Positions 5,777 through 23,664 of a stretch of 43,847 nucleotides of DNA are shown piece after piece. Each line of letters starts with the position of its first letter. Positions within the stretch are counted from its first letter, which is position 1. Origin of the DNA: Nanobdellota archaeon (GTDB taxonomy: Archaea; Aenigmatarchaeota; Aenigmatarchaeia; QMZP01). The notes below the pieces were generated by a model that worked only from the letters and a program-made list of their open reading frames with translations, was not told the origin of the DNA and searched no databases. The translations under genes were made by a program, and so were the position numbers. Location: positions 1 to 43,847 of the forward strand of contig JAHIRU010000009.1 in the NCBI GenBank assembly GCA_018818465.1, read 5' to 3'.

Positions 5777-7243
5777 ATGCCATCACAAATACCACAAGAA
5801 GAAATTGATTCTATTTACGATACAATAAAGTCTGTTAAAGGGTATTCACTAAATGAGGCAACAAGATATCTTGAAAAAGATCCTATTGGATATCTATCAT
5901 CAGAAGCTATACATAGTTATGTTCTTTATTATCTCACTGAATATGCAACTACTTTAGGAGAGTTGGGAGAAATACCTTTATCTGTTGCAGAAGAAATTCA
6001 AGGAATTACAAGAAAGGATGTTCCCTTTAAAGCTGCAGATGATTATGAGGCAAAAATAGGCCATGATATGAGAGGCGTTGTAAAAGCTTTTCAAGATGTT
6101 CTTGGAAATGAAGCTAAATCTTTTGTTTATCCCGGATTTACAACCTATGATCCATTAAACACAGCGCAAAGTCTTGCTCTTCGTGATTTTGGTAGAGAAT
6201 TGATTATACCTAAAACAAAAGAATATGTTTACAATTTAATGGAAAAGGTAGAAGATCATATAGATACAGTTATGATGGGAAGGACTCATAAACAACATGC
6301 TACTGTCACAACAGTTGCTCATTGGGCATATGAAATCATTGGTGGAATAATACCTGCACTCAGGAATTATGATCATGCAATAAGTGAACTTAGAGGTAAA
6401 GCATCAGGTTTCGTTGGAAACAACGCAGCAAGAAAATTACTTTTTGATACTGATCCTGAAAAAATAGATAAATTATTTTTTGAAAAAATTGGGTTAGAAA
6501 GAGACGATATGACAGGTCAAACAGTACATCACTATTATTATCAGAATTATTTGCAGCAATTGAGTGGAATATGTGCCGGTATTGCAAAATTCGCTGAAGA
6601 TCTTAGAAACTACCAACAAACAGAAGTTGGAGAGATGGCAGAAAAAGCACTATCAAACCAAGTTGGTTCTTCCACAGGTGCGCACAAACTTAATCCAATA
6701 AAATCTGAACAAATGGCTGGTATGAGAATAAGACAAATGAAAGCATATCTTTTCGCCGCTTTTGATGATTATATTACAGATTTTCAGAGAGATCTTAGAG
6801 ATTCTGCTAATAAAAGAATTTGTTTCCATGGCATGGGAAACATGGCTTATGGTACAATAAAAATAGCTAGTAGAGTTGCAAAAAACATGACAATAAGAAA
6901 AGAAAAAATGCTTCAAAACATTGGTTTGACTGGTGGCCTCATAATAGCAGAACCGTTACAAAATGCTTTACAGAGGTATATAGGTTTTAATTCTGAAAAA
7001 TATGGTTTTATAGATGCTCATGAACATGTAAGAGAAATTTCAAGAAGTATCATAGACAGTGGTGAAGGATCTTTCCTAGATGCTATAAGAGAAGACGAAT
7101 TAATTACTAAGTGTTTAAATAGTTTAGATGATGAAAAACGTGAATTAATTCTTGTGCCTGAAAAATATATCGGTGATAGTATAGAAGCTGTTGAACGTAA
7201 AAAACAGGAGTGGACTGAGGAATTAGAAAAACTAACTGCTTAA
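5777..7243 (+). CDS. fumarate-lyase superfamily protein, adenylosuccinate-lyase-like but with divergent signatures
   Basis: Three family blocks are recognisable: PGFTTYDPLNTA (cf. G.TS.D..DT), GRTHKQHATVTT (cf. GRTHGQ.A.P.T), GSSTGAHKLNP (cf. GSSAMPHKRNP). Confidence 0.65.
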   Translation: MPSQIPQEEIDSIYDTIKSVKGYSLNEATRYLEKDPIGYLSSEAIHSYVLYYLTEYATTLGELGEIPLSVAEEIQGITRKDVPFKAADDYEAKIGHDMRGVVKAFQDVLGNEAKSFVYPGFTTYDPLNTAQSLALRDFGRELIIPKTKEYVYNLMEKVEDHIDTVMMGRTHKQHATVTTVAHWAYEIIGGIIPALRNYDHAISELRGKASGFVGNNAARKLLFDTDPEKIDKLFFEKIGLERDDMTGQTVHHYYYQNYLQQLSGICAGIAKFAEDLRNYQQTEVGEMAEKALSNQVGSSTGAHKLNPIKSEQMAGMRIRQMKAYLFAAFDDYITDFQRDLRDSANKRICFHGMGNMAYGTIKIASRVAKNMTIRKEKMLQNIGLTGGLIIAEPLQNALQRYIGFNSEKYGFIDAHEHVREISRSIIDSGEGSFLDAIREDELITKCLNSLDDEKRELILVPEKYIGDSIEAVERKKQEWTEELEKLTA

Positions 7244-22992: not shown

Positions 22993-23201
22993 CAGAGATG
23001 GATTTAAAGATTTTGAATATTTTGAAGATTAGGCATTTAATTACAAAAAGCGAGCTTATCATGCAGCTTAATAGAGAAGGAATAAACGGTAACCTAGCTA
23101 ATATAGAAAAATTAACAGACATGGGTTATGTTGAACGTGTCGAGTCCTTAGGAACATGTTTAGTTATAACACAGAAGGGTATGCGAATTCTTGAAGAATG
23201 A
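22986..23201 (+). CDS. small winged-helix DNA-binding protein
   Basis: 71 aa; LKILNILKIRHLITKSELIMQL...LTDMGYVERV has an HTH-plus-wing layout. Overlaps the DJ-1 gene by 7 nt. Confidence 0.5.
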   Translation: MLTEMDLKILNILKIRHLITKSELIMQLNREGINGNLANIEKLTDMGYVERVESLGTCLVITQKGMRILEE

Positions 23202-23249
23202 GCGTGGAATGAATATTTTATAAATACATTATGTCAATTCATATAATAT

Positions 23250-23541
23250 AGCCCTGTAGTGTAGTGGTCAAACATTTTTTGTAAAACAAAAAATGGACTA
23301 AGCATTTCGGGTTTTGGATTTCCTCCAAAACTCTGAGTCCTTTTGGACTGTGAAAGAAAATACCCGGAGACCCCGGTTCGAACCTAATCCCTTTTACGGG
23401 AGCTAACGCTTCCTCAAAGGTCTTGTCTCTAATAACATGGGACAAGAGACATCTCTCATTCAATGTAATGGGAGATGAGATCTAAGGTTTACCCCAAAAC
23501 GAGCAAGTGAAAGGTGATTAGCGAAACTCCGGGCGGGGCTA
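23250..23541 (+). tRNA. tRNA-Gln (anticodon UUG) interrupted by three introns
   Basis: Exons are 23250-23271 (AGCCCTG TA GTGT AGTGGTCAA), 23302-23317 (GCAT T TCGGG TTTTGG), 23362-23382 (A CCCGG AGAC CCCGG TTCGAA) and 23528-23541 (T CCGGG CGGGGCT A). They join to a 73-nt cloverleaf with 7-bp acceptor stem AGCCCTG/CGGGGCT, discriminator A and T-loop TTCGAAT. Introns are about 30, 44 and 145 nt. A TTTATAAATA box lies about 30 nt upstream. Confidence 0.85.
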
Positions 23542-23626
23542 TAATTTTTAATTCCTAGAAATAGAATTTCAGGGGAATAAATTTAGAATTAATTGAAAAA
23601 CCTTAAAAACTATAATTGAAAATATC

Positions 23627-23664
23627 GGAACCAGCATTGTATAATATATTTTGATGCAGGTTCC
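23627..23664 (-). terminator. hairpin plus T-tract after the surface operon
   Basis: GGAACCAGCAT (23627-23637) pairs with ATGCAGGTTCC (23654-23664) with one mismatch. On the minus strand it is followed by GATATTTTC. Confidence 0.45.

Follow-up and report, generated by a model that had tools for sequence, protein, structure and literature searches.

A stretch of 43,847 nt from a Nanobdellota archaeon of the Aenigmatarchaeota (contig JAHIRU010000009.1 of assembly GCA_018818465.1; "the window" below, and C36 in the numbering of contigs used here) very probably carries, at positions 23250–23541, a working tRNA-Gln(UUG) gene interrupted by three introns, which seem to differ in history and probably also in role. 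To judge from the sequence, features of a functional RNA are seen in the 44-nt intron at the canonical position (intron 2), which resembles a guide, and not in the 145-nt T-loop intron (intron 3), which the original prediction had proposed as a possible host for one. Joining positions 23250–23271, 23302–23317, 23362–23382 and 23528–23541 gives AGCCCTGTAGTGTAGTGGTCAAGCATTTCGGGTTTTGGACCCGGAGACCCCGGTTCGAATCCGGGCGGGGCTA, 73 nt including the discriminator A73. ARAGORN folds this product as a canonical tRNA-Gln(UUG) with all cloverleaf stems and invariant bases intact, an A1-U72 pair, a 4-nt variable region and a TTCGAAT T-loop, so that the three segments originally proposed for removal (23272–23301, 23318–23361 and 23383–23527) were exact to the nucleotide. 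The parts of the gene are:

23216–23226, + strand: TATA-like box TTTTATAAATA, ~24–34 nt upstream of tRNA position 1, a putative promoter element by its position only.
23250–23271, + strand: exon 1 (tRNA nt 1–21; 5′ strands of the acceptor and D-stems, and D-loop), near-identical to C24:25269–25290 in the Gln(CUG) paralogue.
23272–23301, + strand: intron 1, 30 nt, in the D-loop at 21/22, with a relaxed HBh′ motif.
23302–23317, + strand: exon 2 (3′ strand of the D-stem, 5′ strand of the anticodon stem, and loop nt 32–37), with the anticodon UUG at 23311–23313 read as T34 T35 G36.
23318–23361, + strand: intron 2, 44 nt, at the canonical site 37/38, with a strict hBHBh′ motif.
23362–23382, + strand: exon 3 (nt 38–59; 3′ strand of the anticodon stem, 4-nt variable region, 5′ strand of the T-stem, and T-loop TTCGAA).
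23383–23527, + strand: intron 3, 145 nt, in the T-loop at 59/60, with a strict hBHBh′ motif.
23528–23541, + strand: exon 4 (nt 60–73; T60, 3′ strands of the T- and acceptor stems, and discriminator A73); CCA is not encoded.
23545–23549, + strand: T5 run, read from the sequence as a likely transcription stop.

The unspliced locus is not detected by ARAGORN, even with its intron option, or by Rfam/Infernal at the gathering score. The Infernal tRNA model gives the raw locus only 14.8 bits, and an Rfam search of 23150–23650 at E up to 10 returned chance-level matches only (drum, GlsR9 and anti-hemB). The 292-nt precursor is predicted to fold at −109.8 kcal/mol (z = −7.25 relative to shuffled sequences). 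No second, intact tRNA-Gln(UUG) gene was found in the 83%-complete assembly with ARAGORN, with Infernal or in a tRNA census allowing for bulge-helix-bulge (BHB) introns. That census, which ranked solutions with the fewest introns first, also offered spurious two-intron "Tyr/Ile" solutions for the locus; these were set aside because the exon boundaries are fixed by the paralogue and by orthologues. A 74-aa open reading frame (ORF) on the minus strand (23239–23463) that overlaps the gene is unsupported and was treated as due to chance.

The junctions were scored for BHB motifs, the substrate of the archaeal splicing endonuclease, with a purpose-written script that looks for a 4-bp helix H with a 3-nt bulge on each side and, beyond these, outer helices h and h′. 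All three have such an H. For intron 3, H is TTCG/CGAA (23377–23380 with 23522–23525), h is the T-stem (5 bp), and h′ is the 6-bp CTAATC/GATTAG helix (23384–23389 with 23516–23521) that had been noted as closing this intron. For intron 2, H joins U32–U35 to GAAA (23356–23359), with the anticodon stem as h (7 bp) and TTTC/GAAA as h′ (4 bp). The pairing between CCAAAA of this intron and TTTTGG of the anticodon loop, predicted earlier, is also present; it is not the BHB helix, being an alternative that excludes U32–U35:GAAA. Intron 1, whose predicted hairpin CATTTTTTG/CAAAAAATG is present as described, has a relaxed motif (H = 4, GGTC/GACT; h = 0; h′ = 10). Of all genome-wide (p,q) pairs, 1.2e-5 combine H = 4 with an h and an h′ of 4 bp or more each, and 5e-4 with such an h′; against this background, three motifs precisely at the junctions that restore a cloverleaf are not attributable to chance. 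Introns at the same positions in a near-identical paralogue and in orthologues, described below, further support the three-intron structure.

The gene is typical of its genome. In this assembly (873 kb in 99 contigs, 36% GC), ARAGORN and Infernal together recognize only ~14 complete tRNA genes, along with many truncated matches that end in the T-loop. The BHB-aware census, which was semi-manual and combined a script with inspection by eye, gave 11 uninterrupted tRNA genes and ~30 interrupted ones, with introns of 20 to 145 nt at 59/60 in ~19 of them. As to the host lineage, the FEN1 encoded in the window shares 62% identity with the one from a metagenome-assembled genome of a Candidatus Aenigmatarchaeota; a search for related loci with the neighbouring 542-aa ORF as query gave no match.

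The splicing machinery expected for such genes is encoded. A search with PF01974 found a single EndA gene, C24:1–918, at the start of a contig; it is cut by the contig end, and its missing N-terminus overlaps C80:1902–2135. The 305-aa fragment aligns to residues 110–387 of 4FZ2, the EndA of ARMAN-2 and the best match in PDB, with E = 1e-83, and conserves the Tyr-His-Lys triad and the lysine of the specificity loop, ASL (FRIY, WIHSKH, VKKTF and GIYK in the 4FZ2 alignment; residue numbering from PMC6379350). The enzyme is thus probably of the broad-specificity epsilon2 type, in which a single polypeptide of about 390–400 aa comprises alphaN, alpha and betaC units; this bears on the question of endonuclease architecture raised with the original prediction. 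Full-length epsilon2 orthologues, in open frames of 391–455 aa, are found in nearly all of 40 relatives from six families; as of a 2018 paper (PMC5829648) this type had been reported only from Micrarchaeota. The ARMAN-2 enzyme cleaves both strict and relaxed BHB motifs in vitro, including one at a 59/60 intron (PMC3239211). RtcB, Nop5 and L7Ae are also encoded in this genome. A precursor of ~292 nt would then be transcribed and matured by the archaeal protein-only pathway, with the epsilon2-type endonuclease cutting at the three BHB motifs and RtcB ligating the four exons into the 73-nt tRNA.

Three further observations concern the census and the enzyme. An initiator-type tRNA-Met(CAU) at C83:4296–4498 (+) is restored only by excising five BHB-like introns, of 32, 30, 29, 17 and 20 nt, in the D-loop, in the anticodon stem, at 37/38, near 43/44 and at 59/60. 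This leaves a 75-nt tRNA with A1-U72 and a GGG/CCC anticodon stem. The maximum per archaeal tRNA gene has been given as three introns (PMC3239211). A tRNA-Leu with the anticodon AAG (A34), unusual for archaea, lies at C74:9643–9810 (+) and is near-identical to a Leu(UAG) gene on C17; a tRNA-Leu(AAG) has also been described in ARMAN-2 (PMC3239211). One relative (G002; 88% complete, 6 contigs) has only a short alpha-type EndA match and no epsilon2 orthologue. Its Gln(UUG) gene has the canonical intron only, and it has no copies of the hairpin described below for intron 3, which makes it a possible natural control for a link between enzyme type and non-canonical introns.

Intron 2 was present in every Gln(UUG) orthologue retrieved, from 15 genomes in families f1, f2 and f4; in the congener's gene, introns 2 and 3 are at identical positions. 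The 15 share a layout in which a stretch antisense to tRNA nt 30–37 is followed by (C/U)UGA, a hairpin, a 3-nt bulge and GA. The hairpin occurs in at least eight sequence variants, with compensatory changes that maintain its pairing. The window has the same sequence of parts, in the D′–stem–C′ order of a kink-turn (K-turn), a fold in which a C/C′ box (RUGAUGA) and a D/D′ box (CUGA) set tandem G·A pairs beside a 3-nt bulge; here CTGA is followed by the stem GTCC/GGAC, the bulge TGT and GA:

23324–23332, + strand: antisense (guide) stretch TCCAAAACT, with 9 contiguous pairs to tRNA nt 30–37 and the first base of the intron; N+5 falls on U34.
23333–23356, + strand: K-turn module, comprising a D′-like box, a stem-loop, a bulge and a C′-like box with GA.
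23333–23336, + strand: D′-like box CTGA.
23337–23348, + strand: K-turn stem GTCC/GGAC with a TTTT loop.
23349–23351, + strand: K-turn bulge TGT, 3 nt.
23350–23356, + strand: degenerate C′-like box GTGAAAG, supplying the GA of the K-turn.

Counting five bases upstream from the D′-like box (N+5), the tRNA partner, which is the one a box C/D guide would target, is U34 in all 15 Gln(UUG) orthologues, three of which (G022, G024 and G016) have near-canonical C′ boxes (ATGATGG, GATGATA and AATGATAGG). The same layout, again with N+5 on nt 34, recurs in tRNA-Trp(CCA) of another relative (G010) and in three other tRNA genes of this genome; a fourth, tRNA-Lys(UUU), has the layout in another register. 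In these four genes, a 37/38 intron with guide, YUGA, hairpin and NNNGA is found as follows:

C17:2830–3060, − strand: tRNA-Glu(UUC), N+5 on nt 34.
C84:2594–2743, + strand: tRNA-Met(CAU), N+5 on nt 34.
C95:~170–420, − strand: tRNA-Leu(UAA), N+5 on nt 34.
C9:~6900–7204, − strand: tRNA-Lys(UUU), N+5 on C32.

Guide and target also covary among the Gln(UUG) orthologues, with U32:A replaced by C32:G and U33:A by C33:G (the latter in G009 and G016). The BHB helix H of intron 2 covaries with nt 32 and 33 as well, which suggests that both conformers are under selection. Nearest-neighbour energies favour guide pairing in the anticodon arm (−21.1 kcal/mol) over the BHB form (−10.0 kcal/mol), and the minimum free energy fold of the whole precursor contains the guide duplex. 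A modification at this site has precedent, with 2′-O-methyluridine (Um34) measured in tRNA-Gln(UUG) of S. acidocaldarius and ac4Cm34 in tRNA-Gln(CUG) of other archaea (PMC7668247).

Several points weigh against reading the locus as a working gene with a guide in its canonical intron. The 44-nt intron 2 has no second box pair (RUGAUGA is missing towards its 5′ end and CUGA towards its 3′ end), and so lacks one of the features that define a full box C/D RNA. Archaeal half-mers are reportedly poor at methylation in vitro. The CUGA opposite GUGAAAG here creates a C·A mismatch in the non-canonical stem; an A·C mismatch adjoins the target in G002, G075 and G033, and another is at nt 32 in G071. The tRNA-Lys(UUU) intron points to nt 32 rather than 34. 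For 11 of the 15 orthologues, the register is not independent evidence, because the pattern used to retrieve them fixes the spacing between guide and box; the other four (G009, G016, G022 and G024) were retrieved by BLAST with exon 1, free of that constraint, and still have N+5 on nt 34. The assembly, 83% complete, yielded no fibrillarin; all 25 relatives searched, the congener included, have it. At the level of the gene itself, intron 1 has no h helix, so that its cleavage depends on the broad specificity assumed for the epsilon2 enzyme of this lineage.

Some of these points would also fit a structural role, in which L7Ae bound to the K-turn chaperones folding of the precursor or times or assists formation of the BHB motif and splicing, and the antisense stretch merely masks the anticodon loop. 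A single K-turn with no terminal C/D pair, mismatches next to nt 34 in some orthologues, and the missing fibrillarin are all compatible with it, as is the close spacing of the two structures, with only 0–3 nt between the K-turn GA and the BHB helix, so that they abut or overlap. A chaperone would need no particular register, however, and N+5 falls on nt 34 in five tRNA species with differing guides. The covariation of guide with target, the near-canonical C′ boxes of several orthologues, and the occurrence of fibrillarin throughout the relatives searched also favour a guide, and in archaea, tRNA-Gln, Met, Trp and Leu are known to carry 2′-O-methylation at nt 34 (PMC7668247). A purely structural role is accordingly considered unlikely, while being the strongest of the alternatives weighed here.

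Intron 2 is thus probably a minimal, cis-acting, box C/D-like guide with one K-turn, directed to Um34. It would be an old intron, kept across the order, in which an antisense stretch adjoins a single K-turn. The box C/D machinery (L7Ae, Nop5 and fibrillarin) would 2′-O-methylate the wobble U34 of the same precursor, which would then refold to the BHB form and be spliced. A separate feature of these orthologues is that C33 replaces the near-universal U33 in tRNA-Gln(UUG) of five relatives (G002, G075, G033, G009 and G016; loci L049, L044, L046, L051 and L053, respectively). Their anticodon loop reads CCUUGG, with C33:G accommodated within the BHB helix.

Intron 3 appears from sequence comparisons to be a recent composite of repeats and not a dedicated RNA gene. 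Its 145 nt result from a dispersed 60-nt repeat nested within a backbone of ~85 nt that belongs to an ordinary intron family:

23390–23421, + strand: hairpin motif CCCTTTT-AC-GGGAGC-TAAC-GCTTCC-TC-AAAGG of the backbone (covariance model R1, 59.8 bits).
23423–23482, + strand: nested 60-nt double-hairpin repeat TTGTCTC...GAGACATCTCTCAT...ATGGGAGATGAGATC, inserted at GGTC^TAAGG.

The congener has an orthologous T-loop intron at the same site and with the same ends, lacking the 60 nt of 23423–23482 and carrying instead a different insert of ~50 nt in the loop of the GGGAGC/GCTTCC hairpin. With its insert removed, intron 3 corresponds to a backbone also found at 59/60 of three tRNA-Leu genes of this genome (on C95, C17 and C74), with compensatory changes in the hairpin of the C95 copy. 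Related backbones occur at 37/38 (tRNA-Cys and -Pro) and at 59/60 (tRNA-Thr and -Ile). There is also a free copy at C24:913–1040, which starts within the stop codon of EndA and has the same 60-nt repeat nested at the same GGTC^TAAGG site. The 60-nt repeat itself has at least 10 copies in this genome, with further copies in other genera, and lies in reverse orientation within the T-loop intron of a tRNA-Ile gene on C10. Motifs flanking the free-standing intron-like copies were sought in case these are also spliced; no convincing BHB was found, and they probably are not.

The R1 model matches 31 of 41 genomes of the order, with 1–11 copies each. In relatives, the GGGAGC/GCTTCC hairpin motif is found in T-loop and D-loop introns of tRNA genes, in insertions in 16S and 23S rRNA genes, and in intergenic DNA. 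Rfam has no family for it (a search of 23150–23650 found none, and three motif-bearing loci of relatives gave tRNA matches only). Among Gln(UUG) genes, the backbone-type T-loop intron was observed in this genus and in G066; it is absent from G013, of the same genus as G066, and the T-loop introns in Gln(UUG) of G022, G024, G016 and G003 are unrelated. Intron 3 is probably a recent acquisition at the level of the genus, taken from the intron family that also occupies the three tRNA-Leu genes, and it may require removal only, with no function of its own.

The proposal that the 145-nt intron hosts a dedicated functional RNA, for example a small RNA freed by splicing, draws some support from the strong structure of the precursor given above and from the near-invariance of GGGAGC/GCTTCC across those 31 genomes, which suggests that something recognizes it. 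Against it, a dispersed repeat, found in either orientation and lacking in the congener's intron, which has another insert elsewhere, makes up 60 of the 145 nt. The backbone is common to unrelated tRNAs and to intergenic copies, the intron is missing from Gln(UUG) in most other genera, and there is no Rfam match. Neither C/D nor H/ACA boxes are present in it, and a search of introns 1 and 3 for C/D boxes or a second K-turn gave none. The proposal thus appears improbable, and the size of the intron is better explained by the nested repeat.

A more dynamic interpretation is that the family of intron 3, made up of ORF-less BHB mini-introns, is mobile at present. Intron gain would then be caught in progress in the Gln(UUG) gene, where the intron occurs in this genus and in one of two genomes of the G013 genus and is missing elsewhere. 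This is offered tentatively, as a possibility less likely than not. The GGGAGC/GCTTCC hairpin would then be the element recognized by the insertion machinery, and the same elements would seed introns in the D-, T- and anticodon loops of tRNAs and in 16S and 23S rRNA. Candidate routes are reverse splicing by EndA and RtcB followed by copying into DNA, or transposition at the DNA level.

Other occurrences of these sequences were seen in passing. Relatives carry the hairpin cassette as insertions within 16S rRNA (inside GGATTAGAT^ACCC) and 23S rRNA (loci L020, on G035:C23, and L009, on G014:C69), which suggests that these cassettes are small ORF-less rRNA introns of the same family. A dispersed motif of ~30 nt, CCTTT-loop-AAAGGTT(T/C)AATCCAAAA, often followed by GGAGC, has at least 20 copies in this genome (for example at C70:5688, C71:23853(−), C93:6098, C52:2566(−) and C8:18), mostly directly past stop codons or ahead of start codons; it also forms the front of the tRNA introns at 37/38 (Cys, Pro) and 59/60 (Thr, Ile). 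In one relative (locus L025, G003:C17:9350–9750), tandem units of ~71 nt, each with the hairpin cassette, immediately follow the downstream end of an intact tRNA gene; some of this region is read as N.

Intron 1 has a history of a third kind. The only other tRNA-Gln gene of the assembly, Gln(CUG) at C24:25269–25372, has near-identical exons and a D-loop intron only, which matches intron 1 in site, in its length of 30 nt and in its ends, with a different hairpin sequence. Homologous D-loop introns interrupt the Gln(CUG) genes of this genome and the congener as well as the Gln(UUG) genes of G006, G013, G056, G071, G086 and G009. All nine homologous D-loop introns examined have H = 4 and h = 0, and most have a long h′; H covaries among them (GGTC/GACT, GGTC/GGCT and GGCC/GGCT). 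The Gln(UUG) genes of the congener and of G002, G066, G022, G024, G075 and G033 lack it. This patchy distribution indicates that it has been gained, lost or exchanged between paralogues. It would be a plain hairpin, common to the Gln(CUG) paralogue and held by the relaxed HBh′ geometry alone.

That the locus is instead a decaying pseudogene full of insertions, with CAA codons decoded by another tRNA, is very improbable: three insertions do bring it to four times the mature length, and a second gene could have been missed in an assembly that is 83% complete, but the cloverleaf stems and invariant bases are whole after splicing, a BHB motif bounds each insertion, the congener retains the same interrupted gene with intact exons, the majority of the tRNA genes of this genome are similarly interrupted, and no further Gln(UUG) gene was found.

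The 292 nt of this gene would combine three stages in the life of introns, one old and seemingly retained for a guide, one a plain hairpin shared with a paralogue, and one recently gained and built from repeats. Standard tRNA finders miss the gene along with most others of the genome, so that annotations of DPANN genomes like this one wrongly imply absent tRNAs. If the guide function is real, it would extend the tRNA-Trp paradigm to U34 tRNAs in a minimal design with one K-turn, and would explain the persistence of such introns in very small genomes. Mobility of the T-loop family, should it be real, would provide a sequence handle on the spread of protein-spliced introns.

Among known systems, the closest precedent for gene and enzyme is ARMAN-2 (Candidatus Micrarchaeum acidiphilum), with its disrupted tRNA genes and epsilon2 endonuclease (Fujishima et al., 2011, PMC3239211; Hirata et al., 2012, PMC3488258), rather than the Thermoproteales, which the original prediction had named along with a few other archaea, the host being a DPANN archaeon (Aenigmatarchaeota). 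Both lineages are DPANN, with an EndA of the epsilon2 type (three-unit in ARMAN-2, and probably so here), mostly interrupted tRNA genes, and T-loop introns at 59/60 with strict and relaxed BHB motifs, one such intron having been cut in vitro by the ARMAN-2 enzyme. ARMAN-2 differs in belonging to another phylum, and its 59/60 example is 13 nt long, compared to 20–145 nt here, where the introns fall into sequence families.

For intron families shared between tRNAs, the Thermoproteales remain the closest precedent, tRNA genes with multiple introns and "large-scale intron transposition" being described from them (Sugahara et al., 2008; Fujishima et al., 2010; as summarized in PMC4090602). According to that summary, they have up to three BHB introns per tRNA gene, with presence or absence varying among close relatives. 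As in the groups taken there to be transposed, tRNAs that differ in identity share near-identical introns here, and these also differ in position. The endonuclease summarized for the Thermoproteales belongs to type (alpha-beta)2, in contrast to that found here, and in the present case the backbones also occur free in intergenic DNA and in rRNA genes, with dispersed repeats nested in them. The 60-nt element resembles REP- or MITE-like palindromic repeats of prokaryotes in being a short double hairpin with at least 10 copies, in either orientation and mostly intergenic; it differs in that no associated transposase was identified and that several copies are inside tRNA introns or backbone copies.

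For intron 2, the closest precedent is the box C/D guide in the euryarchaeal pre-tRNA-Trp intron (Clouet d'Orval et al., 2001; Singh et al., 2004; as summarized in PMC4090602), an intron-encoded guide which that 2014 review terms a "unique example"; a C/D-like RNA has also been suggested in the tRNA-Met intron of Nanoarchaeum equitans (Randau, 2012, PMC3491384). Like intron 2, both lie at 37/38 and are antisense to the anticodon loop, with N+5 from the D′ box on nt 34, and in both, guide pairing and the BHB fold exclude each other. The pre-tRNA-Trp intron, as described in that review, is a complete small RNA with C, D′, C′ and D boxes and two guides (for C34 and U39), whereas intron 2 has one K-turn and one predicted guide in 44 nt, in tRNA-Gln(UUG) and with U34 as target. 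Overall, the gene described here is set apart from these systems by its phylum, by a probable single-K-turn guide for U34 in tRNA-Gln, and by intron backbones linked to intergenic copies, rRNA insertions and nested repeats.

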